The notes beneath the pieces were generated by a model, which worked only from the letters and a program-made list of their open reading frames with translations, was not told the DNA's origin and ran no database searches. This document shows, in pieces, positions 18,601-59,143 of a DNA stretch of 62,472 nt. The DNA is taken from positions 1 through 62,472 of IMG/VR virus record IMGVR_UViG_3300043466_001090. One strand, 5' to 3'. The stretch comes from a virus (lineage: Duplodnaviria; Caudoviricetes). The first letter of the stretch is position 1, and each line of letters begins with the position of its first letter. The position numbers and the translations under genes are program-made.

Positions 18601-21600
18601 GACAACAGCTGTAATGCGTCAGTATCTAACTTCAGAAATGTTGGCTAGATATACACAAGAAACAACTCCTAGAGAAATTGCTGAAGATTTATATGATAAG
18701 ACTAATTTTACAAACTCAGATGAATTTAATAAGTTTCTATTAACTAATTCCAACACTGTAACAAAACCTAATGGTCCTTTTTACAATGCTGTTGTTAGAT
18801 ATGCTAGAAAGAATAATATAAAACTTACGTTTGAAAAACCTGTCTGGTCTAAAGAAACATTGATTAAAGTAGATCTTACAGGTTACACAATAAAGCCAAT
18901 AGATAGATTCAGTAAGATAGATGTTGAAAATGTTGTTTCTCCATCTTTGAATAAAGAACAAGTAAAAAAAGAACAGAAAAAAGATGCAGGACAATCTATT
19001 GTAAACTCTGTAGCAAATAGATTATCTAATAACTTAGGAATAAACTTTAATGTTGTCACTGCAGAACAAGCTAGAACTCTTACAGAAGGAACAAATAATC
19101 CATGGAATGGTGAGAAAGCTTTCTATCTTAACGGAGAAACTTACTTCTTATCTGAAGGTTTTAATACAGAAAATGTACTACATGAATATAGTCATCCTTT
19201 AATTGATGCTGTATTTGCTACCAATAAAGAACTTTTTAACAGATTGTATGATATGCTTTCTTCCAGTGAAGAGGGTAGAGCAATCATAAATGATGTTACC
19301 AATCTTTATCCTGAGGTGAAGTCTACAGATCCTCTGTTTAGAAAAGAGGTGTTGGTTAGAGGTTTAGCTACTGAAGCTCAGAATAAAATAAACGGTGTTA
19401 CAAAAAGTAAAGATTTCAGCAGTTTTATAGATAGAGTTTTGTTTGCCATAAAACAAGCTTTGAGAAAAGTGTTTGGTGTAAAGGTTAAGGTGGAAAAACT
19501 TTCTACTAACACTACACTAGCAGAACTTGCTAAAATGTTAACTAGTGATCAGTTTGAAATTGACACTGAAGTGATTTCTGAAAATGATTATGTTCAGTAT
19601 TCAAGAGATTTGAATGAGTTAAATGAACTAGTGGAGTCTTTAGATGCTGTAGATAGTTCAGATATTTCTTTAACTATAGATAGGTTTTACGAACTGGTTA
19701 GTAATCAGATTCGTCAAGTTATGAGAAATAAAAACTATTCAGAAGCTCGTCAAATACTTATAAATGAAGAAACCAAAAAAGGTCTTCTTCAGGAAATCAA
19801 AAGTACATTAGAGGTTACTCCTGAAATTAATGAGAAACTGAGAGAGCTTTTGGATGAACAGGATATTAGAAAAAGAAACGTTAAGAACTTTGTTCACTCT
19901 GTAAACCGTCTTGAGATTTTAGCAAAAGCTGTTCTTTCACATATGCAAGAGCTGTCTAAAAAAGGAGATGGTGTGGAAGTGATGAACAGTATTTTTTACT
20001 ATGATCTTCTGGTTAGAAACTGGGATAAGTTCTTGAAGGAAACCAAAATAAGATTGTTTGATAATGGTCTTGATCCAGATAGTAGTTTTGGTGAAATGAT
20101 TTCTTCTACTTCTGAAAACATAGAAAAAACTAAAAGACTGATTAGATCTTCATATGTACCAGGTGTATTTAAAGTTTTAAAAGAATCTTTGGAGCCTCTT
20201 TCTAAAGATATTGATAGAGTTTATTCAGATCAAATTAAAAAAGCTCAGGACAGAAATGCTCCTCAGTCTGCTATAGATAGAATACAGAAGAAATGGGATG
20301 CTACTAAGTTAACCGATGAAAGAATAATGGATCTTTTGTTAGGTGAAGCTGGTGATACCAACCCTGTATCTGCTTTCCTGGAAGATTATACAAATAGTCC
20401 TGACCCAATTGTTGGTGGCTTTGCTGTATTTATTAAGAATGCTTATACAGATGTAGATGTTGAAGCATTGAAAAACTCAAATGAGTTTGTAAGAGAGATA
20501 ACTCCACTTCTTAAAGAAGCTGGATATAGTCGTACAAACTTTACATCTTTGATGCAGAAGATATCTTTCTTGGATGAGATGACCTATTTTAACAGTAAAA
20601 CAGGTAAGCTTGATACTAAAAAGATGTGGACGTTTTTAAATGAGTTTAAGAATGTTGATGCTAATCTTAAGAAATATCAGCATGACTATGAGATTGCTAA
20701 AGAAAATGGTGACGTTGCTGAAGCAGATAGAATACTAAAAGAAAAACGTAAACACTTAAAGGATTATTTTCATCAGGAATATACTGATGAGTTTTATAAA
20801 AGAGAAGAAGTTTATGATTCTTTAGAAAAGAATAAGGATTTAGAGGATGCTGTTTACAAAGTTTTAGGTGTTAATAAATCTAAAGCCAATGCTGCTCAAA
20901 GAGCTGAGGCTGCTGCTCTGTATGATAAATCTGCTAAAGAGGCTTACAGACGTAAGTATTTGATTATTAACGAGATTAAAGAGTTAGATGGTCTAAATTA
21001 TATTGAAAATAATTATGATCAAGTAGCTGAACAAAAAACACTTCTTTGGAGAAGGTATTCTCAGATTGCTTCTTTAAGAGATATAAATGGTCAACCTAAG
21101 TTTGGAGAAGAATTATTAATTGCCTTAATAGAAAAGAAATACAGAAAAGTTTCTAATGACATTTTTGAATGGAAACCTATTACAGGTCAGTTTGAATTCT
21201 CTTTAAGCATGTACGAACAGAGTTTAATAGATGCTGGGATACCAAAAGACAGTATAGAGTTTGATGAAAAAAGAAAGAAGTGGATTAAAGACAACACTGT
21301 TATTAAATACACAGATAACTTCTATAAAGATAGAAATGAAATACTTTCAAAGCTTAGAAGACTTCTTGATGAAATACGTAAGATAAATCCTAATCTTGTA
21401 GAAAGAATTGACTCTACAGAAGAGGTTGAAGAGATGTTGGATCTTTCGTTAGGTTTCCGTGATCAGAACGGTCAGATAATGGGGAATGATATATCTGATG
21501 CTTCTAAAGAAAGATTTAAACAGCTTCAAGAAATAATAATAAAAAAGAAAGAAAGTTACGCTGGTTTTAGTGGATTAACTGCTTCTGAAAGTAGGGAGCT

Positions 21601-24175
21601 TTCTGAGATATTTGAAAAGATTAAAGCTAAAACAGCAACTGCTTCAGATAAGCTTAGACTTAATGAACTCACTGAAATAAAAAATCAGTTGGGTATTAAT
21701 AAAGCAATGCAGCTTGAGCTACAAGGTTTATACAGAGAGCTTTCAGACATCCAATCTAAAGAAGCTACTGATTACTATGTAGAACAATTAAACGAGTGGC
21801 TAACTCACATGGGTGAGAATCCTGTTGATAATGATACAGCTTCTTCAGTGTTGGCTCCTGAAAACTACACTTCACTTTTTAAGAAGAGTGCTGATTTTGA
21901 AAAATGGTTTAAAGAGAACCATGTTTTAAAAGAGGTTTACGATGAGAGTAAAGGAGAAAGTGTGCTTCTATACGAAAGACTTTTTATATGGAACCGTACC
22001 CGTCCAAATGATCCAAAACATTTCCAAAGCTACACTCTTCCTTCTGGAGAGGTTATACCAGGTGTTCCGACTCTTTCTTACTTTAGAAGAGTTGTTAAAG
22101 ATGAATATAAAACCAAGAAAGTTGTTGGTAAGAATATAGATAACCGTGGAAACTGGCTTCCAAAGTTACCTCAAGATGGAGCACCTACAGACTCACCATA
22201 CATAAATCAGGAATATTTTGATTTAAAAAAGAATGATCCAAAAGCTTTTGCTGTCTTAGAAAAGATGAAAGAGTACCATCTTAAGTGGCAAGAGAACATA
22301 CCTTTTGAGAGTAGACTTTATATGCAAGCTCCTAGATATAGAAGTATGGCATCTGAGAACTTAAAAGTTTCCAGACTTAAAGAAGTTAATCCTTTAAGAA
22401 GACTTTGGTTAAATATAAAAGATACTTTCTTTAAAGCTAATGATGACTATCAGGATGATTTAAACTTCAACCCTGCAAACTTAGTAAGTGCAAACATGTT
22501 TGATGAGGAAATTAGAAAAGTTCCTGTTACTGGTTTGTATGATTTAAAACCTGATGAGGTTAGTATGAACTTCTTAGATGGGATGATGTCTTATATGCAT
22601 GCTGGTTTAAAACAAAAAAAGCTTATAGAACTTAATCCATTTGCACAAGCTTTAAAATCTGTATTGGAAGATCCTTCCAATGCCGTTGTGGTAGAAAATA
22701 AGTTTGTAAAAAGCATCTATAAAAAGACAGGTAGAAAAGTTCCTATTAGAGAGCAGGGTCAATCTGTTAGAGCAAAAGCAATATCTAACTTTATTGATAG
22801 AGAGTTCTTGGGTATTAATGTAGCAGATATGACAAGGTCCATGCCTCTATTATGGAAACTAAAACGTCTTACATCTAGTATAGCAAGTACTTCTGCATTT
22901 GCTTTAGACATACCATCAGCTTTTAAAAATAGACAAGGTGCTATTGTACAAGGTTTAATAGAAGCAGGTGGAGGTAGATTTATGAGTGCTAACAGTTATC
23001 GTTTAGGAAAAATCAGAGCTTTTTCTATGATGAAAGAGATTAGCACACAGGTGTATGCTACAAAAAATAAATCTTTAGATGTTCAATTGGCTCAGATTTT
23101 TGATCCAGGTGAAGAGTTTCTAAGAAAATCTATAGAAACTCAATTTGGAAGATCTGTTTTTTCTGATGCTGCTAACCTTAGTATACTAACTAATCCTCGT
23201 AAGTTTTTACAGTTAGAGGCTACATTAGAAGTGATGTGTGGTATGCTCTATCACGTTAGGGTTCCACAAACTATAGATGGTCAAACAAGAGAGTTAGAGT
23301 ATATAAATGCTTTTGAAATTAAGAATGGTCAGATACAACTAAAACCAGGAATACCAGAAGAGTGGGCTCCAGGTGGTGCTAAGTTTAAAGAAATTAAAAA
23401 CAAAGTTCAAGAAGTTGGTAAAAGACTAGAGGGTACTTATTCAGATTTAGGAAGAGCAGAAATAGATAGATACTTCTTAGGTAGTCTCATGAAGTTTATG
23501 AAGAAGTATTTTACTTCTATGTTTATGAACTGGTTTGCTCCTAATAGAACAAGTGCTGCTTTGGGAACAGTTAGTTCTGGTAACTATGTTGCCTTCTTAA
23601 CGTTGATGGCTCAAATTCTTAGATATGGACCTAAAGCTTATATGTGGGCTAATGAAAGTGATGTAGCAGGATTTAGAAAAACTCTTATGCAGGTTGCTGT
23701 TGTTTCTTTCCACTACATGGCTCTGTCTTGGTTCTTTGATTATGATGATTCAGATGAAAACAGATTTGAAAAAATAAGAGCTCGTGAAAAGTCAAATCTA
23801 GACGATAGTATAAACTATTCAGGATGGGTGTTTAATCATTTATTACTTCTTACGTTAAATACATTAACGGAGACTGAAACTTGGACAAACCCTAAAACAT
23901 TTATAAACACTGTTTATGGTATACCTACTCCTGGTCCAATAATAGACTTGTCATTGAAAACTCCTTATAATCTTGTAGACCATAGTATTGGTATGGTAAC
24001 AGGAGATCCTTCTGATTTCTATAAACAAGATACAGGACCTTTCTGGTTTCAAAAAGAAGGTGCACCAAAAGCTATGAATGATTTAGCTAAGTTGTTTGGT
24101 GTAACAGGTAAAACGTTAAGTCCTGAAAAAGGTATTAAAGCTGCTGAAGCAGTAAGAGAAGGGGTGTTTAAATAA
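15638..24175 (+). CDS. Giant polyvalent virion cargo protein (2845 aa) with two zincin-like metallopeptidase modules
   Basis: HEFSHPF (~15986) and HEYSHPL (~19181), each followed by LYPE...EV(M/L) and L(T/S)(P/T)NTT(F/L); hydrophobic C-terminal segments; third giant gene of the crAss-like RNAP cluster. Confidence 0.75.
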   Translation: MLVCPNINTKEWKELEKALGQKEAFREYIRLNTGGIPSLVDVLPLNQVPFSKLEDDESVKTLKENTANDLIDFLNNKFPGVKGAVINDKKQKWKGKLVDGKTPTINLAYAEASDGFHEFSHPFLMALRKSNSETFNSLYNDLKESEEWNEISVRATERVNKLYPELRGNVNLDLYKEEVMATAIGYASELKLLTSKKKISSRLGRIIDNIFEWLNNFFSEISQKGFADRIKTNDLTPNTTFGEIIDMFTDTRSQIILDSDWNKAADNLRIADAMTGALTTNQELMSEQLMNDVSTEILTNKAFSLDEYINQWLAKTFKLPKKEFVPRKVKPSELAYNIASRMIESVQQKGFQLRGIDFKQVKTLPESFAVQKATIERLANIITPIELNYKFSNYLTNKKATSIALNQPLVTIKDVETKDKEGNVVIQPTPNIQISVAEAEAVIDFQNFIKDKFPGRKSIPADELNDEYLKWVTENYGINWTDATGVAGYGMNRIANAPYQNYTRVLFIDDYFDTSPRHNFTVNQTGDQGNGLGWYVRVEIGGDRFDHEFQSDILPEIEKDFKEGKYSESLPAGKLRPQNRRTQVENLAVSKITSMMQTSGDFLIARDNFLYDQITTVDEEIENSSPTLIEIEPQELQIYPELPFSKLDSYDPARLENSKKFLLAEVDVQIQLLKDSSRRLDTILGQKMFSKLYNLFLSRKNDEQKELFDWFKTFKTTDFSTSDQDSLPFSKIDNAPVEIFLGTYNEKSYYLTQESIDKFPSAFKKIYKIHLEWAQSNAPLKPKLPNDEMFWINTMANAFMNRLVDKQGNIKKNYGKNKADIQRTRDLIKDELKKSFNSYNFSKKQLKALEWRQIVYQDVNNIVHITEYYKGQFNRLYRFYNNIYESALPIAQEKITAKERDPNFARYKKYNDLYYKWFDIIVPQSINSAKAEGRPYYYLPTAMAMNAIEGNPAAEKVYWTPSDSLEEMKRGLNPILDIERYISQNTEETTAVMRQYLTSEMLARYTQETTPREIAEDLYDKTNFTNSDEFNKFLLTNSNTVTKPNGPFYNAVVRYARKNNIKLTFEKPVWSKETLIKVDLTGYTIKPIDRFSKIDVENVVSPSLNKEQVKKEQKKDAGQSIVNSVANRLSNNLGINFNVVTAEQARTLTEGTNNPWNGEKAFYLNGETYFLSEGFNTENVLHEYSHPLIDAVFATNKELFNRLYDMLSSSEEGRAIINDVTNLYPEVKSTDPLFRKEVLVRGLATEAQNKINGVTKSKDFSSFIDRVLFAIKQALRKVFGVKVKVEKLSTNTTLAELAKMLTSDQFEIDTEVISENDYVQYSRDLNELNELVESLDAVDSSDISLTIDRFYELVSNQIRQVMRNKNYSEARQILINEETKKGLLQEIKSTLEVTPEINEKLRELLDEQDIRKRNVKNFVHSVNRLEILAKAVLSHMQELSKKGDGVEVMNSIFYYDLLVRNWDKFLKETKIRLFDNGLDPDSSFGEMISSTSENIEKTKRLIRSSYVPGVFKVLKESLEPLSKDIDRVYSDQIKKAQDRNAPQSAIDRIQKKWDATKLTDERIMDLLLGEAGDTNPVSAFLEDYTNSPDPIVGGFAVFIKNAYTDVDVEALKNSNEFVREITPLLKEAGYSRTNFTSLMQKISFLDEMTYFNSKTGKLDTKKMWTFLNEFKNVDANLKKYQHDYEIAKENGDVAEADRILKEKRKHLKDYFHQEYTDEFYKREEVYDSLEKNKDLEDAVYKVLGVNKSKANAAQRAEAAALYDKSAKEAYRRKYLIINEIKELDGLNYIENNYDQVAEQKTLLWRRYSQIASLRDINGQPKFGEELLIALIEKKYRKVSNDIFEWKPITGQFEFSLSMYEQSLIDAGIPKDSIEFDEKRKKWIKDNTVIKYTDNFYKDRNEILSKLRRLLDEIRKINPNLVERIDSTEEVEEMLDLSLGFRDQNGQIMGNDISDASKERFKQLQEIIIKKKESYAGFSGLTASESRELSEIFEKIKAKTATASDKLRLNELTEIKNQLGINKAMQLELQGLYRELSDIQSKEATDYYVEQLNEWLTHMGENPVDNDTASSVLAPENYTSLFKKSADFEKWFKENHVLKEVYDESKGESVLLYERLFIWNRTRPNDPKHFQSYTLPSGEVIPGVPTLSYFRRVVKDEYKTKKVVGKNIDNRGNWLPKLPQDGAPTDSPYINQEYFDLKKNDPKAFAVLEKMKEYHLKWQENIPFESRLYMQAPRYRSMASENLKVSRLKEVNPLRRLWLNIKDTFFKANDDYQDDLNFNPANLVSANMFDEEIRKVPVTGLYDLKPDEVSMNFLDGMMSYMHAGLKQKKLIELNPFAQALKSVLEDPSNAVVVENKFVKSIYKKTGRKVPIREQGQSVRAKAISNFIDREFLGINVADMTRSMPLLWKLKRLTSSIASTSAFALDIPSAFKNRQGAIVQGLIEAGGGRFMSANSYRLGKIRAFSMMKEISTQVYATKNKSLDVQLAQIFDPGEEFLRKSIETQFGRSVFSDAANLSILTNPRKFLQLEATLEVMCGMLYHVRVPQTIDGQTRELEYINAFEIKNGQIQLKPGIPEEWAPGGAKFKEIKNKVQEVGKRLEGTYSDLGRAEIDRYFLGSLMKFMKKYFTSMFMNWFAPNRTSAALGTVSSGNYVAFLTLMAQILRYGPKAYMWANESDVAGFRKTLMQVAVVSFHYMALSWFFDYDDSDENRFEKIRAREKSNLDDSINYSGWVFNHLLLLTLNTLTETETWTNPKTFINTVYGIPTPGPIIDLSLKTPYNLVDHSIGMVTGDPSDFYKQDTGPFWFQKEGAPKAMNDLAKLFGVTGKTLSPEKGIKAAEAVREGVFK

Positions 24176-38832: not shown

Positions 38833-38951
38833 AATTTTTGAGTTTTAGGGGGTTAAAAATAGTAAAAATGCTGAAAAAAATTGTATATTATATTGTAAGA
38901 ACTTACATGAAACGCTAAACTTTTTTATTTATATTTTATAACTAATTGAAA
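38833..38951. promoter_or_regulatory. AT-rich divergent promoter region between the replication (-) and late (+) modules
   Basis: Non-coding strand switch containing ttgtatattatattgt. Confidence 0.45.
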
Positions 38952-39275
38952 ATGAGTAACTTACCTCAGAAGAACTCTGTGGCTAACACCATTAAGCTTT
39001 ATCTATTTCCCTCGTTAGTCACTATAATTTCAATGCTTATTTGGCGTGACATTTCTGAGCTTAGAGCTGATGTTAAAGCTCTTCTAGCCCAGTCTAATAT
39101 AGACAAAACTAGAATAGACAATCTAGTGAATGATGTAAAGTCTTTAGAAAGTGCTGTTTTTAAAAGACAAATGTCTATGAATACAAGATGGTTTGAAGCA
39201 GTTAATCATGATCCTTGGTATAAACCAGAAGAAGAGTATGACATAAAAAAGTACATAAAGTATCCTAAAGCATGA
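38952..39275 (+). CDS. Membrane-anchored coiled-coil protein
   Basis: TM segment LYLFPSLVTIISMLIW followed by heptads; ATG at 38952 preferred to TTG at 38946. Confidence 0.65.
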   Translation: MSNLPQKNSVANTIKLYLFPSLVTIISMLIWRDISELRADVKALLAQSNIDKTRIDNLVNDVKSLESAVFKRQMSMNTRWFEAVNHDPWYKPEEEYDIKKYIKYPKA

Positions 39276-40570
39276 TAGATAGTCCACAAACAATAAGCTT
39301 ACTAAAAAGCATTAACAAACAGCTTTGCTGTAAATTGGATGGTACAACTACTCCTTCTAGTATTGTTTTTGCACCCTCTACAGCTCAAGATAGCTTTGGA
39401 AGATTAAGAACCTCTGCACCACTTACATTATTTGATTCTAGTCATAGATATGCGGATAACGGACTTTGGGCCACAAATGCAGCATCAGATGGTGCAGCTG
39501 TATTTAATGCTAACCAAGGACTTGTAGATTTAAATATTACAGCAGCCTCTGGCTCTTCTATTATAAGAGAAACAATGAAGGTATTCTCTTACCAACCTGG
39601 TAAGAGTCTTTTAGTTCTTAATACGTTTGTAATGGCTCCTGCTAAAACAGGACTGACACAGAGAGTGGGATACTTTGGTGTAAATAATGGATATTATTTA
39701 CAACTAGAGAACAACACTCTTAGTTTTGTTGAAAGATCTATTGTTACAGGAAGTATTATAAATACACCTGTAGTTCAGTCTGACTGGAACTATGATAAGA
39801 TGGATGGAAATGGTCCATCTGGAATAACTCTTGATATCAGTAAGTCTCAAATACTTTGGATGGATCTTGAGTGGTTAGGTGTTGGTTCTGTAAGAATGGG
39901 CTTTGTTATAGATGGTCAGTTTATACTTTGTCATACTTTCCATCATGCTAATATCTTAGCATCTACATATATTACAACAGCTTCCCTGCCTTTGCGTTAT
40001 GAGATTTTTAATACAGCTGGAACATCTGGAGCTAGTACACTTAAACAAATATGTTCCACTGTAATTTCAGAGGGCGGGTATGAGTTAAGAGGTGTACAAC
40101 AAGCTGTTGGTACAAATATAACAACTCCTAAAGCATTTGCTGCAGCAGGAACCTATTATCCTATTGTAGCAATTAGACTTAGATCTATAAGACTAGATGG
40201 TATAGTTATCGCAACCGCTGTGTCTTTATTAGGACTTGGTAGTAGTAAAAACTATCAATGGAGAGTAGTGCAAAGTGGTATAACAACAGGAGGATCTTGG
40301 ACACCTGCATCTGCTGATTCTTCTGTAGAATATAATACTGGTGGAACTAGTGTATCTGGTGGTAGAGTTTTAGCTAGTGGATTTGTCAGTTCATCTAATC
40401 AAGGATCACCCTCTATTAATATATTAAAAGAAGCATTGTTTGCTAATCAATTAGAGAGAAACAGTTTTACAGGAACAGCTTTTGAATTTGTTGTAGAAAT
40501 GGCTGTAGGATCAATATCTGGAGGTGAAGGTGCTTTTGTTTCTATAGACTGGGAAGAAATAAGTAGATAA
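39272..40570 (+). CDS. Putative virion structural (beta-sandwich/lectin-like) protein
   Basis: DSFGRLRTS..TLFDS, YQPGKS, EWLGVG, DWEEI; S/T/G-rich; N-terminal LCC motif. Confidence 0.6.
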   Translation: MIDSPQTISLLKSINKQLCCKLDGTTTPSSIVFAPSTAQDSFGRLRTSAPLTLFDSSHRYADNGLWATNAASDGAAVFNANQGLVDLNITAASGSSIIRETMKVFSYQPGKSLLVLNTFVMAPAKTGLTQRVGYFGVNNGYYLQLENNTLSFVERSIVTGSIINTPVVQSDWNYDKMDGNGPSGITLDISKSQILWMDLEWLGVGSVRMGFVIDGQFILCHTFHHANILASTYITTASLPLRYEIFNTAGTSGASTLKQICSTVISEGGYELRGVQQAVGTNITTPKAFAAAGTYYPIVAIRLRSIRLDGIVIATAVSLLGLGSSKNYQWRVVQSGITTGGSWTPASADSSVEYNTGGTSVSGGRVLASGFVSSSNQGSPSINILKEALFANQLERNSFTGTAFEFVVEMAVGSISGGEGAFVSIDWEEISR

Positions 40571-40582
40571 AAATTAAAAAAT

Positions 40583-40996
40583 ATGGCAATGGGAATATTT
40601 GAACAATTAGCATTGTTAAATAAAAAAGTTAATAGACTTTGTTGTGCTATAAAAAATCAAGGCTTAACAAGCACTAACGTTGATGTTACCCCTTTAGAAG
40701 AAACTCCTGGTTATACTATTACAGAAAGTGGTATTTATCAGTTTTATGGTGGAACAAATATAGGAATTACCTTAACATTTGCTTCCCCAACTTCTGCTGG
40801 ACAAACAATTTATGTAATAAATACTTCTATTGACACTCTTACAATGAGTGGTCTTGTACCATTTATTGGACCTACAGGAAGTGGATTAACTTCTATTGGT
40901 ACTGATAGTGCTTATCACTTGATATCAATGGAAGACGCAACTTCACCTGGAAACTTTATTTGGAGAGCATTTAGTATATATCCTAATAACGCTTAA
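40583..40996 (+). CDS. Putative virion structural protein
   Basis: T/G-rich beta domain; N-terminal helix ending RLCC. Confidence 0.55.
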   Translation: MAMGIFEQLALLNKKVNRLCCAIKNQGLTSTNVDVTPLEETPGYTITESGIYQFYGGTNIGITLTFASPTSAGQTIYVINTSIDTLTMSGLVPFIGPTGSGLTSIGTDSAYHLISMEDATSPGNFIWRAFSIYPNNA

Positions 40997-41616
40997 TGAA
41001 ACGTAACAGCTACATACAAGATAACTTTATGAACATTGTAATCATTGTTCTTATTGTTGTTTTATTACTTCAGAGATGTGGTGGTGATAAATCTGAACCA
41101 GTTCAACCTTCTGTAAAGAGAGATACGGTTTGGATTGTAAAAGATAGTACAATCATCACCAAACCTCAACTTGTTAAGACAATTGAGGTTCCTATAGAAA
41201 GATGGGATACAGAATATCTGCCAGATACTAACTATGCTAAATTGTTAGAACAGTATGTTGCTCTGTCATCTAAGTTCTTACAGATGGGAATCTATCAGGA
41301 TACTGTAAAGCTAGATAGCTTTGGTTATGTGGCTATAAAAGATACAGTGACCAAGAATGCTTTATCTGGAAGACTTGTAGACTACCACATAAAGGTTCCT
41401 AAGATTACAGAAACCATTACAGTCCATGAGAAGAAAAGAAACCAGGTGTATATAGGAGGATCTATAATAGGATCCCCTGTACCAAATGGTATAATGGGTG
41501 GGTTTATGGTTAAAACAAAGAAAGATAAATTATTTGGAGGTTCTGTAGGTGTAAATTCTTTTGGGGATTTACAATACGGAATTCATTCATATTGGAAAAT
41601 AAAACTTAAGAAATAA
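40996..41616 (+). CDS. Membrane-anchored lysis-region protein (spanin-like candidate)
   Basis: N-terminal hydrophobic IVIIVLIVVLLLQRC (possible lipidated Cys), DTVWIVKD-type repeats, beta-hairpin C-terminus YWKI; next to holin and endolysin. Confidence 0.5.
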   Translation: MKRNSYIQDNFMNIVIIVLIVVLLLQRCGGDKSEPVQPSVKRDTVWIVKDSTIITKPQLVKTIEVPIERWDTEYLPDTNYAKLLEQYVALSSKFLQMGIYQDTVKLDSFGYVAIKDTVTKNALSGRLVDYHIKVPKITETITVHEKKRNQVYIGGSIIGSPVPNGIMGGFMVKTKKDKLFGGSVGVNSFGDLQYGIHSYWKIKLKK

Positions 41617-41897
41617 TGAAAATCATAACTAGTTTACTAAAAGACTTTAGAGAGTTGTTTACAGATGACAAAGGTAGAATTTCCTCTAAAAGATTAATGG
41701 GAATCGTTTGCAGCCTCACTTTGTGTATCACTTTATACCACAATAGCTTTTCAGAACAGAGCGTTGCCCCATCACCAGCCCTTGTAGAGAGTGTAGCTCT
41801 TTTAGCTTTTGGTTGTCTGGGACTTACATCTTTAGACAAGTTCATTGCTGCTAAAAACAAAGGTAACGATACTACTAACAACACAGGTTCAGAATAA
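41616..41897 (+). CDS. Holin-like membrane protein
   Basis: GRISSKRLMG followed by two TM segments and a polar C-tail; upstream of the endolysin. Confidence 0.65.
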   Translation: MKIITSLLKDFRELFTDDKGRISSKRLMGIVCSLTLCITLYHNSFSEQSVAPSPALVESVALLAFGCLGLTSLDKFIAAKNKGNDTTNNTGSE

Positions 41898-43015
41898 TGA
41901 AACATCTATCGAAAGAAGAGTTGTTGAGTAGAATGGAAGCTATAAATAGGAGCAATGCTCTTATTTACTTTGACCTTAATGGTATTATATTAGGTGTAAA
42001 TGATATCTTTTTGAAAGCAATGGGGTATGGTGAGAATGGTCACGAAGAACTTATTGGTAAGCATCATAGTACATTTGTATGTGAAGACTATGCTAGATCA
42101 TTAGAATATGAAAAGTTTTGGGATATACTAAGAAGTGGTAAGTATTACAAAGGAGAATTTGAAAGGAGAAGAAAAGATGGTTCTTTAATTAACTTACAAG
42201 CAACTTATAATCCCATTTTTGATGATAGTGGTAAGATTACTAAAATAATGAAAGTTGCTACTGACATTACTGCTATTGTAGATAGTAAAAAACAAATAGA
42301 TGCAATTAATAGAAGTAGTGCAATCATTAGTTTTAACATTGATGGGTTCATACTAGATGCAAATTCTATATTTTTAAAGACTATGGGTTATAAATCTAAC
42401 GAAAAAAATAAAATCGTTGGAAAGCATCATAGCATATTTATAAGTTACGAGTATTCTAAATCTGATGAGTATGTCAAGTTTTGGGAAAGCTTAAAAACGG
42501 GTAAGTATTTTGATGGAATATTTGAAAGAAGAAAAGTAGATGGTTCTACAATATATTTACAAGCATCATATAACCCAGTATTTGATAGTAAGGGTAATGT
42601 TACTGGAGTGATTAAGATTGCTACAGATGTTACTGATTCAATAAATAATAAGAAGAAAATAGATGAACTTTCAAAAAGTTTACAAATTGAGTTAGATAAT
42701 TCAAACAAACTTAAAGATTCAATAGAGATAGAAAAAAATATAGCTCTGAATGATTTAGACATGGTGTTAAAGAAGAGTCAAAATGAGTTAATAAAAGTAA
42801 TAGTTAAATGTGCTTTGGCGGTAATAGTAGGAGTTGGTGTTGTTACCACTATTTTATATTGGATGGCAATACTAACAGGTAAAGATACTCAGATAATTGG
42901 CTCTACTTGGAGTAACATGTTTAGTGTTCTACTAACAAATGCATTTTCAATAGTTGGTACAATTATGGGTATTAAATACGCTACACAAGATGACAAGAAA
43001 GATAAATCAAAATAA
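41897..43015 (+). CDS. Tandem PAS/PAC-domain protein with a coiled coil and two C-terminal TM helices
   Basis: Two repeats of AINRS.A.I.F..G.I...N..FL..MGY...GKHHS.F...Y.KFW..L..G.Y..G.FER...DGS...LQA.YNP.FD..G.....K.ATD.T (BdlA/soluble-MCP-type PAS); no kinase or MCP signalling domain. Confidence 0.88.
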   Translation: MKHLSKEELLSRMEAINRSNALIYFDLNGIILGVNDIFLKAMGYGENGHEELIGKHHSTFVCEDYARSLEYEKFWDILRSGKYYKGEFERRRKDGSLINLQATYNPIFDDSGKITKIMKVATDITAIVDSKKQIDAINRSSAIISFNIDGFILDANSIFLKTMGYKSNEKNKIVGKHHSIFISYEYSKSDEYVKFWESLKTGKYFDGIFERRKVDGSTIYLQASYNPVFDSKGNVTGVIKIATDVTDSINNKKKIDELSKSLQIELDNSNKLKDSIEIEKNIALNDLDMVLKKSQNELIKVIVKCALAVIVGVGVVTTILYWMAILTGKDTQIIGSTWSNMFSVLLTNAFSIVGTIMGIKYATQDDKKDKSK

Positions 43016-43042
43016 CTGGTAATAATATAAAACAAACAATCC

Positions 43043-43636
43043 ATGGATATTAACAAACTAAAAGGACACATTCCAGACGCTGTATTAGCTCAAATTCCTG
43101 AGGTGCAGCAGAAGTTTGGAATAGACACAGCAGTTGAGCTTTCTCATTTCTTAGCTCAGTGTGGTCATGAATCAGGTGGATTTAAAGCAGTAAGTGAAAA
43201 CTTAAACTATGGAGCTAAAGGGCTTCTTGGTATATTTAAGAAATACTTCCCTACAGAAGCTAAAGCTAAGGAATACGAACGTAAACCAGAAAAGATTGCT
43301 AATCTAGTTTATGGTGGTAGAATGGGTAATGGTCCTGAAGCTTCAGGTGAAGGATATAAGTTTAGAGGTAGAGGCTATATTCAGCTCACTGGAAAATCTA
43401 ACTACTCAGAGTTTGATAAAGTGGTAGCAGAAGATATCATTAGTAACCCTGATTTAGTAGCAACTAAGTATCCATTGTTATCTGCTGCTTGGTTCTTCCA
43501 TAAGAACTGTTTAAAAAGATGTGTAGACGCAAGTGATGCTACAGTTACATCTGTTACCAAGTGTGTTAATGGTGGTACAATAGGACTTCCTGATAGATTG
43601 AAGCACTTTAAAGAATACTACAGTCTTTTAAAATAA
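43043..43636 (+). CDS. Glycoside hydrolase family 19 endolysin
   Basis: HFLAQCGHESGGF, ENLNY, FRGRGYIQLTGKSNY, SAAWFF, VNGGTIGL.DR. Confidence 0.9.
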   Translation: MDINKLKGHIPDAVLAQIPEVQQKFGIDTAVELSHFLAQCGHESGGFKAVSENLNYGAKGLLGIFKKYFPTEAKAKEYERKPEKIANLVYGGRMGNGPEASGEGYKFRGRGYIQLTGKSNYSEFDKVVAEDIISNPDLVATKYPLLSAAWFFHKNCLKRCVDASDATVTSVTKCVNGGTIGLPDRLKHFKEYYSLLK

Positions 43637-43654
43637 CCAGTAAATCTATATAAC

Positions 43655-43717
43655 ATGATTAAAAACAATAACATCTACGGCTGTGGCTGTGGTAAACCTA
43701 AGAAACCTAAAAAATAA
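43655..43717 (+). CDS. Micro-ORF MIKNNNIYGCGCGKPKKPKK (20 aa)
   Basis: ATG at 43655 after an A/T-rich leader; stop 5 nt before the next ATG. Confidence 0.45.
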   Translation: MIKNNNIYGCGCGKPKKPKK

Positions 43718-43722
43718 AAACT

Positions 43723-44127
43723 ATGAAAAAAAGAGCATTTGTAAGGTACAGTAAGCAAGGCAAAATTGTACCTGGTAGTTTGATCCTCACTAGTGGATCA
43801 TTCCCTAGTGGACCATCTACATGGAAAGAAGTTCCAGCAGACTTATGTTGTGAAACTGTAACCATCAGTGCCCAAGTGAATGATCCTGCGATTAACGCTG
43901 TATCTATTTCATTTTTGTGTAATGGTGTTAACAAAATTTCTAAATATAGTACCCAAGAGTCTACTGATACGGACAGTTTAGTTGCTATTCTTAATGAAGA
44001 ATTTGGACCTGAGTATGGAACTTTTACTTACTTAACAGATGGTTTGTTTACTTTAGATATTAAAGCTTCTATAGCAAACGAATTATGTCCTAATGGATTT
44101 TTATCATTTGAAATATTTTCTGACTAA
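43723..44127 (+). CDS. Protein with one N-terminal IVPGSL/CC repeat and an unknown C-terminal domain
   Basis: KRAFVRYSKQGKIVPGSLIL...WKEVPADLCC. Confidence 0.7.
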   Translation: MKKRAFVRYSKQGKIVPGSLILTSGSFPSGPSTWKEVPADLCCETVTISAQVNDPAINAVSISFLCNGVNKISKYSTQESTDTDSLVAILNEEFGPEYGTFTYLTDGLFTLDIKASIANELCPNGFLSFEIFSD

Positions 44128-44129
44128 TC

Positions 44130-44993
44130 ATGAGTAAAAATAAAGCCTGGATACAGTATACTAAACAAGGAGAAATAGTTCCTGGTAGTTTGATTGTGTC
44201 TCCAAGACGTCCTGTAAATGGTGTTTGGTATGAGGTGATTACAGACATATGCTGTGACACAGAACCTCCATTTGGTGTTATTAGTAGTAAACAAAAAGCA
44301 TTCGTTAAGTATGACGCTTCTGGGAACATAGTTCCTGGAAGCTTAATACTTACAGATAGTAGACTACCAAAACCTGGTATATGGAAAGAAGTATATATTA
44401 ACATTTGCTGTAGTACTACTATTGATCCTTTAATTCCTGTTACTATTGGTACACAAATATGGAGTGGAATAAACTTAGATGTTGTTAATTATAGAAACGG
44501 TGATCCGATACCTCAGGTTACAGATCAAACAACATGGAATAGTTTAACAACAGGAGCTTGGTGCTATTATGATAATGATCCAGCTAACGGACCAATTTAT
44601 GGTAAATTGTATAATTGGTACGCAGTAACTGATCCACGTGGACTAGCTCCTATAGGTTGGCATGTTCCTAGTGATACTGAGTGGACAACATTAATAAATT
44701 TTGTTGGTGGTACACCAGTAGCTGGTGGAGCCTTAAAAGAAACAGGAACTACTCATTGGGATGCACCCAATACAGGAGCTACTAACAGCAGTGGATTTAC
44801 TGCTTTAGGTGGTGGTAGTAGATTAAGTAGTTTTTCGGCTTTAAAAACAAATGGTAGTTTTTGGACAGCTACTTCATCAGGTCCTACAAATGCAAGAAAT
44901 GCTTCAATGACTTCATTTAATACAGTACTAAGTTTTGGACCAACAGGTACTGCAAAATATAGAGGTAGTTCAGTAAGAATAGTAAAAGATTAA
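44130..44993 (+). CDS. Two IVPGSL/CC repeats plus a Fibrobacter succinogenes major paralogous (FISUMP)-like domain
   Basis: IGTQIW..NL, YGKLYNWYAV, LAPIGWHVPSDTEW, NSSGFTALGGG.R, FWTAT, SVR. Confidence 0.8.
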   Translation: MSKNKAWIQYTKQGEIVPGSLIVSPRRPVNGVWYEVITDICCDTEPPFGVISSKQKAFVKYDASGNIVPGSLILTDSRLPKPGIWKEVYINICCSTTIDPLIPVTIGTQIWSGINLDVVNYRNGDPIPQVTDQTTWNSLTTGAWCYYDNDPANGPIYGKLYNWYAVTDPRGLAPIGWHVPSDTEWTTLINFVGGTPVAGGALKETGTTHWDAPNTGATNSSGFTALGGGSRLSSFSALKTNGSFWTATSSGPTNARNASMTSFNTVLSFGPTGTAKYRGSSVRIVKD

Positions 44994-44998
44994 TAATA

Positions 44999-45127
44999 AT
45001 GGCAAAAGGAAAATCATTAGGTGATGTTAGAAAAGTCACCTTTGGGAAAAGAAAAAAGGGTAATGCTCAGAAGAGCTTTAATAAACATACCCCCCGTCCC
45101 AAGAAATACGTTGGACAAGGTCGCTAA
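44999..45127 (+). CDS. Small basic protein (42 aa; not in ORF track)
   Basis: MAKGKSLGDVRKVTFGKRKKGNAQKSFNKHTPRPKKYVGQGR*. Confidence 0.65.
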   Translation: MAKGKSLGDVRKVTFGKRKKGNAQKSFNKHTPRPKKYVGQGR

Positions 45128-45179: not shown

Positions 45180-45218
45180 AAAGAAATAGCCCCTGTATTA
45201 CATAACAGGGGCTTTCTT
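45180..45218. terminator. Bidirectional intrinsic terminator at a convergence point
   Basis: agcccctgt/acaggggct stem flanked by A-rich and T-rich tracts. Confidence 0.8.
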
Positions 45219-45221
45219 GTT

Positions 45222-46727
45222 TCACTTTATTACTCTACCTTTTTCATCCACCTTACTGATAGTAGAACCATCAAAGATGATCACTTGATCTCTTCTAGAA
45301 TACTCTGCTATAGTATCAGCATGAAAATGGCTAAACCTGGCTCCCTTTAGACCAATGAAGAATGCTTTCTCAGAATAAGTGTTACATCCGTCTTCTGCAT
45401 CTGTAAGAATAATAGCGTTAACGCCATTTCTCTGTACGCTATTTACAGCATTGTTAATAGTTGTACCACCAGATGTATCCAACATTGCAATACTTACAAC
45501 ATCTTTCTTAAACTTCTTAACATTATTATTAAAGATGTACACTTCATTTAGCATATCCATCTCAGCTAATTTAGCCACCATAGATTTACAAAAATCTAGA
45601 CGGGAAATATTATGTCCATCTTTATTGGTTACACCACAAGAGTCAGACATAGATCCTGATATGTCTATATAGACATCTATCTTACCTATAGACTTGGTAT
45701 CTTTTACCATGATGTCTTCTGCAAAAAGCTTTCTAAGTTTTGGATGTAAGAATTCAAACTCCTCTAGACCAGATATATTATCTGAGTTGAACAAGTCTTC
45801 ATATATCACTTTCTTCTTAGAACTAAAATAACTTGCAGACTTATCAAGCAGCTTCTTAAGCTTGTCTTTAAGAGATCCCATAGATAAAGATATGTTCTCA
45901 AGACTCTTTGCTACTTGTCTGATATAATCAGGACTAAGTTTACCAGCTTCAGATTGACCTCCAGGTTCATTCACCTGGTCAAACATCATCTCTTGTATAT
46001 CTTGGTCCATTGTATCATCCATCTGATTACATAAGTCTGTAGCTTGTTTAATAGCTTCTTCCATTGCAGACTTACCTTGTTGACTATCCATCATGTTTTT
46101 CATAGCATCATCAAACCCATCACTATCAAACTCTGATTGACCGTTCATACCATTCTTAATTTTCTCAGAAGCTTGTGCATCTACATAATCCATGGTTGTT
46201 AGTCTGGTCATATATGCACCCATGATGTTTCTAGCAAAAATGGCAGACTTTAGATTAGATCCTTCAGACATAATCTTAGCTACAGGATTGTTAGCTTTCT
46301 CTAGAAATCTAAACTTAGCGTGGTTAGTATCAGTACGCTCTTCAAACTCTAAGTTTTCCATTCTGTGATAGAACATCTTGAAGATGTCTTTAGGCATATG
46401 TTTAGGAAACTTCTGATAGTTTTCTTTAACCTTCTTTACAAAGTCTCCAAAGTCTGGCTTTTTACCATCAGGTATCTTAGCATAGCCTGTACTCTTTGCA
46501 AACTTATTGTATGCATCTTGTACATTTTTAGCATCACCAAAATAATGATTCATGATGTTATCTATCCGTTGTTCATCTAACCAGTGCATATGTGGCTTGA
46601 TAAGGTCTGGTTTTTTGTAGAAGTTAATCTTACCAAACAAACCACCTTCATTTTTATAATGAGATTGTATCTCACCTTTCTTTACTTTCTCAAGAATGGT
46701 ATATACATTCTTATATTGTTTTGCCAT
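45222..46727 (-). CDS. VWA-domain protein (ViaA-like partner of a MoxR ATPase)
   Basis: MIDAS motif YIDISGSM, GGTTI and IILTDAED in the C-terminal third. Confidence 0.8.
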   Translation of the reverse strand: MAKQYKNVYTILEKVKKGEIQSHYKNEGGLFGKINFYKKPDLIKPHMHWLDEQRIDNIMNHYFGDAKNVQDAYNKFAKSTGYAKIPDGKKPDFGDFVKKVKENYQKFPKHMPKDIFKMFYHRMENLEFEERTDTNHAKFRFLEKANNPVAKIMSEGSNLKSAIFARNIMGAYMTRLTTMDYVDAQASEKIKNGMNGQSEFDSDGFDDAMKNMMDSQQGKSAMEEAIKQATDLCNQMDDTMDQDIQEMMFDQVNEPGGQSEAGKLSPDYIRQVAKSLENISLSMGSLKDKLKKLLDKSASYFSSKKKVIYEDLFNSDNISGLEEFEFLHPKLRKLFAEDIMVKDTKSIGKIDVYIDISGSMSDSCGVTNKDGHNISRLDFCKSMVAKLAEMDMLNEVYIFNNNVKKFKKDVVSIAMLDTSGGTTINNAVNSVQRNGVNAIILTDAEDGCNTYSEKAFFIGLKGARFSHFHADTIAEYSRRDQVIIFDGSTISKVDEKGRVIK

Positions 46728-46826: not shown

Positions 46827-48224
46827 TTAGAAAGGGTTAGCATCAGTCATTGGTGCTGCATCTTCTAGCATATTATCAAACTCTTCTGCAGACATATACT
46901 CTTTACGAGCAGGATGATTAGAAATGATATACTGCATAGACATTTCTATCTCTTCCACCTGACCTTCATCAAGAACACCTCTGCTAGTATAAGCATTGAT
47001 AAGACTTTCAATCTCTGCTACAGCTAGTTCTAGTTGTTCACTAGTGCTATGAGAATGTAACATCTCTACCTTGCTCATAACAGCTTTAACTTCTGAAGAC
47101 ATTAGTTTATTCTGTAGGTTAGAAGCTGCATTCTGATCAATCATAATCTGAGCTGTCTTTACAAGAGCTTTATCTACAGAGATATCCCATATGTAACTAA
47201 CAGCTTTGGCTAGTCCTGGTACGAAAGTCAACGTTCTATCTGAGCTTTTAGTATAACCCACCTCAAGATATTTCTCCAGCTTTTTAACTGGAATCTCTAC
47301 GGCAGCAATCTCTGCTTTGTTTGGAATACCAATAGCAAACTTCTCACGATAGTTACGGGCACCCTTCTCATAATACTTAGCCATCTCACCTGCAGATACA
47401 CGGTTAACCGTCATCTTCAGCATGAATCTGTCCCAGAACGGAGAGTCTTGCTCGTCTTTAGGAATTTCATTACAAGTAGCAATAAACAGCTTCCACTTAC
47501 ATGGAATCTTGTGCTTACCATTAAAGAGGAACTTCTCATTCATTACACCCAGCATAGCATTTCTAATGGCTGAGCTAGCTTTATCCACCTCATTGATGAT
47601 TACAATGTCTGCTTCTGCAATAGGTGTGTTAAGCTCATACTTATTCTCTGTAAACAAAGTTTGTAGATCTGGCATACCTTTAATCTCTGATGCTTTAGTA
47701 CCCTCATCAGTTTCTAGGATGTACATCTTGTTAGCAAAGTCTTCTGCGGACATCTTGCCATCTTTATTCAACCATGCTTTAGCATATTCTATAATAGTTT
47801 TGGTTTTAGCTACACCTGGCTCACCTACTAACAACAGTGGTAATCCTGTAGCCTCTGCTAATGCTAGCATCTTAAATACTTCTTCCTTATTAATCAAGGA
47901 AGTTTCAATCTGACGAACCTCTTGGGTTGTTTTTTTTGTAATGGTCTTAGTTGACTTAGCCATTTTAAGGGGTTTTTTTGTTATTGTTGGTTGTGTTGTT
48001 GCATATAATGATGGTGTTACTAGTTCAAATGATTCTTCTCCTATAAGTCCATCATAGTGATTATGTTTAGTATTTCCTATAGGTGGATAAACTTTATATC
48101 CTGGTCCATAAGAATAATCTCCTCTTTCTATAATAGTCACTTCTAAACCTACTTCTTCTGGTCCACAACCAGAACCAGATGTTATCACTTTTACTATATC
48201 TCCTACATTAAATTTATAATTCAT
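46827..48224 (-). CDS. MoxR/RavA-like AAA+ ATPase (start at 48224 or internal 47963)
   Basis: LLLVGEPGVAKT, IINEVDKASSAIRNAML, ATCNEIP, FWDRF. Confidence 0.82.
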   Translation of the reverse strand: MNYKFNVGDIVKVITSGSGCGPEEVGLEVTIIERGDYSYGPGYKVYPPIGNTKHNHYDGLIGEESFELVTPSLYATTQPTITKKPLKMAKSTKTITKKTTQEVRQIETSLINKEEVFKMLALAEATGLPLLLVGEPGVAKTKTIIEYAKAWLNKDGKMSAEDFANKMYILETDEGTKASEIKGMPDLQTLFTENKYELNTPIAEADIVIINEVDKASSAIRNAMLGVMNEKFLFNGKHKIPCKWKLFIATCNEIPKDEQDSPFWDRFMLKMTVNRVSAGEMAKYYEKGARNYREKFAIGIPNKAEIAAVEIPVKKLEKYLEVGYTKSSDRTLTFVPGLAKAVSYIWDISVDKALVKTAQIMIDQNAASNLQNKLMSSEVKAVMSKVEMLHSHSTSEQLELAVAEIESLINAYTSRGVLDEGQVEEIEMSMQYIISNHPARKEYMSAEEFDNMLEDAAPMTDANPF

Positions 48225-48228
48225 AGTA

Positions 48229-48579
48229 TTAGAGGTTTGCAAAGATGTCTGCTGCTTCAGTAGAATCCACTGTTGTTCTCTCACTGACCATAGATACCAC
48301 TGGTTGTTCCACTGGAGTGTTTGATTTGGTAGGTTTAGATCCTTGGGTTTTATCTGTGGTCTCATTCTTAGTATCGTCTATAATGTTAAAGATTGTAATA
48401 CTAGTCTCTGCATCTTTAAGAGATGGGTGTTTTCTAATAGTAGCAATCTGTAATGCATTAGCACCATATTTAGTTTCTATACTTCCATAGCCAAGGTCAT
48501 CTTTCTTAAGCCATGTTAAACCTGAGTTCAAGTCATTGATAATTTGAGACACTGTAAGGTCTACTTTATTTACTGCCAT
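48229..48579 (-). CDS. Hypothetical protein
   Basis: 116-aa ORF with ATG after an A-rich leader. Confidence 0.7.
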   Translation of the reverse strand: MAVNKVDLTVSQIINDLNSGLTWLKKDDLGYGSIETKYGANALQIATIRKHPSLKDAETSITIFNIIDDTKNETTDKTQGSKPTKSNTPVEQPVVSMVSERTTVDSTEAADIFANL

Positions 48580-56419: not shown

Positions 56420-56453
56420 GTGATACCCTTTGAAGACTATTTTCCCATAGTCG

Positions 56454-56527
56454 TGGACTCATCTAGGATCGAACTAGAAACCTATTGATTATGAGTCAAT
56501 TGCTCTAACCTATTGAGCTATGAGTCC
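56454..56527 (-). tRNA. tRNA with CAT anticodon (Ile2 or elongator Met)
   Basis: GGACTCA acceptor, TAGCTCAATAGGTTAGAGC D arm, ATTGA-CTCATAA-TCAAT anticodon arm, TCTAG-TTCGATC-CTAGA T arm, discriminator A. Confidence 0.9.
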
Positions 56528-59068: not shown

Positions 59069-59069
59069 G

Positions 59070-59143
59070 TGATCTCAGATGGGCTCGAACCATCAGCCTA
59101 CAGCTTAGAAGGCTGTCGCTCTATCCTGTTGAGCTATGAGACC
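59070..59143 (-). tRNA. tRNA-Arg(TCT)
   Basis: GGTCTCA acceptor, ACAGC-CTTCTAA-GCTGT anticodon arm, GATGG-TTCGAGC-CCATC T arm. Confidence 0.9.

Follow-up and report, generated by a model that had tools for sequence, protein, structure and literature searches.

The stretch of viral DNA analysed here, called the window, is the linear IMG/VR record IMGVR_UViG_3300043466_001090 at its full length of 62,472 bases, with an estimated completeness of ~50%. At 41897-43015 its plus strand carries a gene for a protein of 372 amino acids (aa; plus stop) in which two PAS domains are joined by a helical stalk to a membrane hairpin. The gene is part of a plus strand block (38946-45127) flanked by two minus strand blocks. 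Gene order in the block is orf109, a virion structural protein, orf137, orf206, orf93, the 372-aa gene, a GH19 endolysin, orf134 and a Fib_succ_major protein. The junction of orf206 (40996-41616) with orf93 (41616-41897) and that of orf93 with the 372-aa gene both read TAATG, hence stop and start codons overlap by one base. The endolysin gene follows at 43043-43636 on the same strand (197 aa; Glyco_hydro_19 5.2e-9, endolysin phrog_181 3.4e-63). Its product shows no hydrophobic segment by hydropathy and is therefore soluble. The original prediction for this locus, a lysis cassette with a sensor inserted between holin and endolysin, is right in gene order and TAATG coupling, while its labels 'holin' for orf93 and 'spanin-like' for orf206 find no family match.

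PAS domain 1 covers residues 21-123 (41957-42265; all parts of the gene are on the plus strand) and PAS domain 2 residues 142-244 (42320-42628). Pfam detects both stretches (PAS_3 1.4e-26, 93 bits versus a cut-off of 25.6; PAS_9 1.3e-22) and NCBIfam reports the generic sensory_box model only (1.1e-30). The AlphaFold2 model, built on an alignment of 45 rows, has a mean predicted local distance difference test (pLDDT) score of 84.9, and both PAS folds exceed 90. From residue 246 an unbroken helix runs to residue 327, such that the stalk continues into the first transmembrane (TM) helix; after a three-residue turn a second helix comprises residues 331-370. The stalk is the cytoplasmic part of the first helix (residues 246-296, 42632-42784). 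The membrane hairpin consists of TM1, a short outer loop and TM2 (residues 297-360, 42785-42976). It is delimited by two hydrophobic segments at ~295-328 and 341-359 and by the AlphaFold2 model, whose membrane part has a pLDDT of 64-74. A short charged tail (42977-43012), seen in the translation and by length comparison, closes the protein. As there is no signal peptide and the loop is short, both termini would lie in the cytoplasm. The predicted architecture was thus correct: a PAS-PAS pair in the cytoplasm, a helix, two TM segments and a charged end, without any enzymatic or DNA-binding domain as output. Beyond the two PAS domains nothing is found in Pfam or NCBIfam. In particular, there is no MCPsignal match in Pfam, despite the automatic name 'methyl-accepting chemotaxis protein' (MCP) given by the Joint Genome Institute (JGI). 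The nearest clusters in the Protein Atlas are viral hypothetical proteins (score <=0.87), which we take as a lead only.

The protein is widespread. At E<=1e-5 it is matched by 5174 protein clusters of 7999 candidates scored, so the open reading frame (ORF) is not a chance one. Among the 120 matches listed, identity is 81-99% and length 367-393 aa. In IMG/VR a relative is encoded in 169 of 208 pattern matches. Our analyses of this fused gene rest on 80 loci kept from the 169, all of them full length and 79-100% identical, and the complete 111-kb relative G405 carries an identical copy. At least half of the region's sequence words were found in five DNA sequencing runs from five studies, four of them labelled lake water metagenome; no RNA run is listed.

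Genes next to the fused gene diverge more than the gene itself, with 45-80% identity for GH19 and 24-55% for orf93 in the same 80 loci. Substitution rates were estimated pairwise (Nei-Gojobori) between the window and each of the 80 homologues. For the PAS-hairpin gene the median nonsynonymous divergence (pN) is 0.10 and the synonymous divergence (pS) 0.62 with a ratio of ~0.08. All parts of the protein behave alike, the hairpin showing a pN of ~0.09. The corresponding values are 0.25 and 0.75 for GH19 (37 loci) and 0.57 and 0.71 for C0, the family of orf93 (51 loci). The PAS-hairpin gene is under strong purifying selection. Recent horizontal spread was considered as a cause of the high identity and is ruled out by the diverged synonymous sites.

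Conservation extends to length. In 174 of 175 distinct sequences, 45 residues separate the end of PAS2 from a membrane-proximal motif; the lone exception is an artefact of motif matching. The following 51 residues, up to a conserved Trp, are constant in length in all 175. Variation in the stalk-hairpin region is confined to the tail, with 31-40 residues from this Trp to the end. Loop and TM2 are >=90% identical at nearly every position (176 distinct sequences), and the polar residues of TM2 are conserved.

Searched alone, as proposed with the original prediction, the C-terminal part of the protein has stand-alone relatives. When the last 124 residues were compared exhaustively by HMMER with 1.84 billion representatives, 102 proteins matched at E<=1e-3, and for 70 of these E was <=1e-10. 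In the 43 that were fetched the match is always at the C-terminal end. What precedes the hairpin varies: a PAS-PAS pair, a single PAS domain of two kinds, a GAF domain (2.5e-17) or, most commonly, a small N-domain of ~45 residues with a stalk of variable length (28 aligned). A few odd N-termini, namely SOUL and glycosyltransferase fragments, may be chimeras. Also in the forms other than PAS-PAS (n=91), TM2 and loop are >=90% identical at most positions. The short form, with the small N-domain, has 14 distinct stalk lengths, and all of these fall within three adjacent of the seven heptad classes, as predicted by a coiled coil with preserved register.

The hairpin module itself has no match in Pfam, PHROGs or NCBIfam, and 28 short-form relatives do not match a holin PHROG. 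A tblastn search of the GenBank phage records with the hairpin gave nothing at E<=0.1. Among 185,579 species genomes (one each) it occurs on only four contigs of metagenome-assembled genomes (MAGs), 3-32 kb in size and from four different lineages; small and scattered as they are, these contigs probably represent phage DNA that was binned along. A further 400 genomes from the phylum of one such MAG yielded just four marginal matches (E 1e-3 to 6e-3, 18-21 bits). A cellular origin of the hairpin was considered, and both results speak against it. By its distribution in sequence collections the hairpin is an independent, strongly conserved module that is almost confined to viral contigs.

This pattern bears on whether the hairpin is a mere membrane anchor, the PAS pair or the stalk signalling to a soluble or peripheral partner. 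The aerotaxis receptor Aer offers a precedent: in it, too, an N-terminal cytoplasmic PAS domain precedes a membrane hairpin whose outer loop is short (PDB 8dik, 31cj), and such an arrangement is typical of Aer-type receptors. It also fits that the PAS domains are conserved as much as the hairpin. Aer, however, continues into HAMP and MCP domains, whereas the window protein ends after the hairpin with a tail of only ~12 residues. Loop and TM2 are the most conserved part in all architectures, and the hairpin stays the same where another cytoplasmic domain takes the place of the PAS pair. Substitutions and length changes would be tolerable in a simple anchor. Hence we consider an anchor function highly improbable.

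In the short form the sensor is seemingly encoded separately. IMG/VR contains 553 relatives of this form among 587 pattern matches, and 80 kept loci (L082-L161) were analysed. Directly upstream of the short-form gene a 144-aa receiver-only protein (Response_reg, 31.9 bits versus a cut-off of 30.2) is encoded in 74 of the 75 loci that have an upstream gene. The two genes overlap by 4 bases in 49 loci and by 1 base in 25. Further upstream, 62 of 68 relay loci encode a membrane-anchored PAS-PAS histidine kinase (HATPase_c 1.2e-14). Stalk and hairpin of the relay form are 50-54% identical to those of the window protein. Both PAS domains of the window protein have their closest relative in the second PAS domain of the kinase (46-52% identity); for PAS1 of the window the identity is 46%. 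The relay operon is often found near DnaK-like, class II tRNA-synthetase-like (tRNA-synt_2, 1.5e-15) and phosphoesterase-like genes, on contigs of up to 322 kb.

Neither a receiver nor a kinase core is matched in the window or in the 80 fused-gene loci. In five whole fused-gene records, three of them >=90% complete, there is no receiver match and one hairpin match each. With the same receiver query all five short-form records tested as positive control gave a match (85-88% identity). The fused and the relay design are mutually exclusive. Since the hairpin is shared, the window gene represents the fused, one-protein form of a phage signalling relay. Both forms agree in stalk, hairpin, type of PAS domain, location mostly on viral contigs and a frequently adjacent endolysin. 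They differ in that the relay uses three genes (PAS-PAS histidine kinase, receiver-only regulator and hairpin protein with small N-domain) and the window one. In the relay the signal would pass by phosphotransfer and binding, in the window protein within a single chain.

Candidate signals for the PAS pair were sought among its relatives. By sequence, the closest solved structures are the tandem PAS domains of MmoS (7e-13), Aer and NifL (PDB 3ewk, 8dik, 2gj3). The top Foldseek matches are tandem PAS sensors as well, namely MmoS, DosP, NifL, LOV-HK and FixL. The PAS structures nearest to the window protein belong to sensors that bind flavin or heme. The stretch of Aer with RHPDMP, which we take to comprise flavin-contacting residues, is aligned with unrelated residues of the window protein. 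As this segment is not kept, flavin binding cannot be assumed. A Gly-Lys-His-His-Ser motif is present twice in 169 of 176 distinct family members.

Among 50,697 GenBank phage records the sole strong match is a PAS-PAS-MCPsignal protein of a record with high G+C content (L254, MT836939.1; ORF 656-2683, MCPsignal 1.1e-49), which shares 44% identity over 234 residues of the PAS pair. This resemblance explains the automatic JGI name. The tandem PAS domains are alike including the paired His-His motif, and the outputs differ, MCPsignal there versus stalk and hairpin here. The original assignment of the PAS pair to the BdlA/soluble-chemoreceptor type therefore holds in part, namely as far as likeness to this PAS-PAS-MCP protein goes. 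The record, labelled 'UNVERIFIED: Bacteriophage sp.', is 8.2 kb long and by eye contains, besides the chemoreceptor, a resolvase-like fragment and a GGDEF-EAL-like large membrane protein. It looks bacterial rather than viral. At the nucleotide level the PAS gene has no match in the GenBank phage records; of the window, the virion-protein gene alone was matched.

The genomic context of the fused gene was surveyed by calling the longest ORFs, clustering four genes on each side by BLASTP and scanning one representative per cluster against Pfam and PHROGs. An endolysin is located at most four genes away in 70 of 80 loci, and in 61 of the 66 where at least three genes are available on each side. 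It is immediately adjacent in 40 of 80. Four kinds of endolysin are involved: GH19 (37 loci), PG_binding_1 with phrog_3000 (22), Phage_lysozyme (14) and Peptidase_M15_3 (13). Homologues are thus not mostly outside lysis cassettes, and the link to lysis genes that had been predicted stands. Among 71 loci there are 46 distinct arrangements of two genes on each side. Upstream genes vary and include those for ribonucleotide reductase, a helicase-like protein, a glycosyltransferase and a virion protein. Holin candidates recur as well. Phage_holin_4_1 (two groups) is found in 29 of 80 loci, C0 within four genes in at least 51 and one or the other in 60. The count for C0 is a minimum, as antisense ORFs were called instead of the real gene in L001 and L064-L066. 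C0 is also found in lysis cassettes devoid of the PAS gene. No holin PHROG is matched by any of 30 C0 members, and orf93 has no match in Pfam, PHROGs or NCBIfam; it is a candidate holin only by size, hydrophobic segments, position and charged tail.

Taken together, sequence and context suggest that the phage probably sets the moment of host burst from an intracellular signal. With moderate confidence we propose the PAS-hairpin protein as a candidate one-protein signalling device at the membrane step of host lysis. A change of ligand or redox state in the PAS pair would be passed along the stalk, which is probably dimeric, and would alter the packing of the hairpin in the membrane. This in turn would advance or delay release of the soluble endolysin. 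As to the last step, we tentatively favour a hairpin that by its own assembly permeabilises or depolarises the membrane in the manner of a holin or pinholin, an idea that is well within reach though short of probable. It could form the hole or serve as a trigger that collapses the membrane potential and thereby fires the canonical holin of the phage.

Class II holins and pinholins such as S21-68 of phage 21 span the membrane twice, keep both termini in the cytoplasm, end in a short charged tail and have polar residues in the second TM helix; they are encoded next to the endolysin. The window protein shares with them the predicted two-TM topology, the charged tail, the polar residues of TM2 and the endolysin neighbour. 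In contrast to pinholins it has a cytoplasmic sensor and stalk of 296 residues, no holin family match and a nearly invariant sequence, and it is accessory. As regards the usual traits of functional holins, the hairpin part has a pair of TM helices and a charged tail, and in 40 of 80 loci the endolysin gene is its direct neighbour; against this stand the length of the whole protein (372 aa) and its accessory nature. Unlike in phage 21-type systems, the endolysin of the window is soluble and not signal-anchored. A pair of signal-anchor-release (SAR) endolysin and pinholin was considered and is ruled out, as the GH19 enzymes lack a hydrophobic segment both in the window and in 37 of 38 relay-form cases.

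Two lines of evidence favour a hairpin acting by itself. Firstly, it is accompanied by holin and endolysin families that are unrelated, and shows no co-variation with these. Secondly, in some relay loci it is the sole membrane protein next to a soluble endolysin. The order kinase, receiver, hairpin protein and soluble GH19 is seen in 12 relay loci, and in 16 of the 42 relay loci with an endolysin there is no other small membrane protein within four genes. The GH19 enzymes of relay loci carry a peptidoglycan-binding domain. On this basis a broader proposal can be made, namely a holin-type output with interchangeable sensors, either a fused PAS pair or a phage kinase plus a receiver acting by binding, which would compute the time of lysis from the state of the host (redox, oxygen, energy or a metabolite). 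We regard this broader scheme as possible, and put it forward with caution.

Alternatively, the hairpin might act on a holin, as an antiholin or holin partner. It would then hold or prime a phage holin, e.g. orf93, and the state of the PAS pair would gate its release. Such a protein would correspond to RI and RIII of phage T4, but with its sensor in the cytoplasm. The PAS gene is start/stop-overlapped with orf93, C0 is no more than four genes away in at least 51 of 80 loci, some holin candidate is present in 60 of 80, and the gene is accessory, as antiholins are. The presumed partners are inconstant, however: C0, two groups of Phage_holin_4_1, other small TM proteins or none that was seen. A binding pair is expected to co-vary, yet the pN of C0 is 0.57 compared to ~0.09 for the hairpin. 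That the protein hardly changes next to holin candidates that diverge quickly agrees more with a fixed target or with self-assembly than with an antiholin evolving along with its partner. Near the relay form, holin-like clusters including C0-like ones are found in only 8 of 80 loci. A complex prediction for the hairpin (residues 280-372) with orf93, both with alignments, scored 0.00 versus a mark of 0.32; run without controls, it speaks neither for nor against binding. Within the lysis reading we therefore rate the antiholin variant as unlikely.

Several observations weigh against a role in lysis altogether, or against a holin-type output. The 372-aa protein matches no holin model in Pfam, PHROGs or NCBIfam, and holins are not usually so nearly invariant. 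As the endolysins are soluble, they would not be released through a small pinhole alone. In 60 of 80 loci the PAS-hairpin gene has other holin candidates nearby. Synteny shows no more than association, and lysis genes are frequent neighbours of variable 'moron' slots. The loci are related and some are near duplicates; hence the counts are not independent events, and they were obtained with a crude gene caller and without a shuffled synteny control. With the relay form, just 42 of 80 loci (35 of 55 with full flanks) show an endolysin at most four genes away.

The gene is moreover dispensable to the cassette. Of the 80 viral loci with the GH19 most similar to that of the window (72-99% identical), 7 carry the PAS-hairpin gene within 5 kb and none the short form. 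The PAS-hairpin gene is accessory and not needed for lysis. A direct comparison is provided by L166 and L173, which share ~74% nucleotide identity over the flanks and the order orf206 family, GH19 and C0. Where L173 has its PAS gene, 66% identical to that of the window, L166 has three unrelated small genes. These encode a 97-aa protein with a TM plus helix (coiled coil), a 48-aa product and a 142-aa protein with a signal-like N-terminus and a C-terminal TM. The swapped slots are at 5832-6791 in L166 and 5838-6950 in L173.

Such findings raise the question of an effector outside lysis, i.e. a sensor-controlled membrane protein that resides in an accessory-gene slot and is directed against a conserved host target (respiration, transport, envelope or phage exclusion). 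Extreme conservation of the hairpin, while its neighbours diverged to saturation, suggests a fixed and probably host target. The dispensability of the gene, the unrelated genes in the slot of L166 versus L173 and the 38 of 80 relay loci that lack a nearby endolysin and lie among the chaperone-, synthetase- and phosphoesterase-like genes mentioned above point the same way. On the other hand, 70 of 80 loci have an endolysin nearby, these belong to four unrelated families, and there are 46 local arrangements, which hitch-hiking alone poorly explains. The overlap with the small membrane gene of the cassette and the recurrence of the order hairpin gene then endolysin in the relay form also speak against such an effector. 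We consider an effector of this kind less likely but a strong competitor, and retain the membrane step of lysis as the proposed site of action.

The remaining genes of the block were inspected for further components of lysis. It opens with orf109 (38946-39275, plus strand), a candidate inner-membrane spanin-type partner with a hydrophobic segment at residues 14-33 followed by a charged helical region; there is no confident family match in Pfam. Relatives of orf109 adjoin members of the orf206 family just ahead of the PAS gene (L014) or occur in a lysis cassette without PAS gene (L229). The product of orf206 (plus strand) has a hydrophobic N-terminus (residues 5-33) followed by a cysteine and is thus lipoprotein-like. 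It has no match in Pfam, PHROGs or NCBIfam, and with 206 aa it is large compared to typical outer-membrane spanins. Its family (cluster C25) recurs next to GH19 in L166, L173 and L229. As to features of a spanin pair, orf206 has the hydrophobic N-terminus and Cys, orf109 the TM and helical region, and the families are adjacent in L014; neither matches a known family. The third membrane gene, orf93 (plus strand), was assigned to C0 and shows hydrophobic segments and a charged tail.

Between orf109 and orf206, and hence inside the lysis block, lies the gene of the virion structural protein (39272-40570, plus strand; phrog_1645, 6e-134). It has ~65% nucleotide identity to genes of Synechococcus cyanophages and of Puniceispirillum phage HMO-2011, which indicates a gene common to phages of unrelated hosts. 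Downstream of the endolysin follow orf134 (43723-44127) and the Fib_succ_major protein (44130-44993; 5.8e-41), both on the plus strand. The two products share a similar N-terminal stretch of ~30 residues, which occurs twice in the longer protein. By eye, similar N-terminal stretches are also seen in the L166 ORFs 9311-9697 and 9708-10148. The stretch may be a shared attachment module of fibre-like proteins. A strong two-way terminator-like hairpin of 9 pairs, 6 of them G-C, closes the block at 45188-45213. The terminator scan found no further terminator-like site on the plus strand between 39606 and 45188. A scan for sigma-70 promoters was uninformative (25 sites versus 28.1 expected).

Elsewhere, the window encodes a DNA polymerase, a primase, two helicases and an exonuclease. 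Two tRNA genes, tRNA-Met (CAT, 56453-56527) and tRNA-Arg (TCT, 59069-59143), are located on the minus strand in the early or replication region. Three consecutive giant ORFs occupy together ~23 kb of the plus strand (1168-6240, 6243-15623 and 15638-24175; 1690, 3126 and 2845 aa). They do not match any PHROG at 1e-5 and are probably virion or injected proteins of an undescribed kind. On the minus strand, a 501-aa protein with an Asp-x-Ser-x-Ser motif, by eye typical of von Willebrand A (VWA) domains, adjoins an ATPase (phrog_19600, 1e-18; ORFs 45222-46727 and 46827-48365). The two may constitute a MoxR-type ATPase/VWA pair.

Known systems of regulated lysis were compared to the window protein. 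Lysis inhibition of T4 involves the holin T and the antiholins RI (periplasmic) and RIII (cytoplasmic), according to two reports (PMC11413866, PMC8385771). There an accessory phage protein adjusts holin timing on a signal, and RIII acts from the cytoplasm; this resembles the candidate role proposed here. The proteins are unrelated in sequence and domains, and RI responds to superinfection, which it perceives in the periplasm, by binding to a single cognate holin. The window protein by contrast has its PAS sensor fused to a membrane hairpin of its own, and its holin partner is hypothetical. ICP1 of Vibrio cholerae is an example of a phage-encoded, condition-dependent delay of lysis outside the T-even phages, as judged by the abstract (PMC7182436). 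Its proteins are unrelated to the window protein, and no PAS/GAF-type sensor domain is noted in that abstract. In Firmicutes, LytSR/LytST control the holin-like proteins LrgAB and CidAB, as stated in two papers (PMC3507848, PMC6997555). Similar to the phage relay, a two-component system is thereby coupled to holin-like membrane proteins. LytSR is cellular and transcriptional with a DNA-binding regulator, whereas the receiver of the phage relay lacks an output domain and a phosphorelay is absent altogether from the fused form.

None of these, i.e. T4 inhibition, ICP1, class II holins, Aer and LytSR, has the hairpin family or its architecture. Searches of full texts, supplements excepted, turned up no account of phage lysis cassettes with a membrane protein coupled to a PAS or GAF domain or to a kinase. 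A two-helix membrane output that receives the input of a PAS, GAF or receiver domain via a helix of fixed register is an undescribed output class. The original prediction as a whole, a sensor-fused holin or antiholin that couples lysis time to redox, energy or biofilm state of the host, is partly supported.

The timing of lysis decides burst size and phage fitness. To our knowledge, the only well-studied control of lysis that responds to a signal is superinfection lysis inhibition in T-even phages, to which the ICP1 case is related. If our interpretation is true, phages would read the physiological state of the host, directly or via a phage kinase plus receiver, to choose the time of burst. 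The PAS-hairpin protein would be the first sensor-gated holin, and the relay the first two-component system with a membrane pore as output instead of a gene or enzyme. The PAS-hairpin is also a compact candidate part for ligand- or redox-gated lysis switches. As its family is very abundant in lake metagenomes, it could shape bacterial mortality in freshwater.

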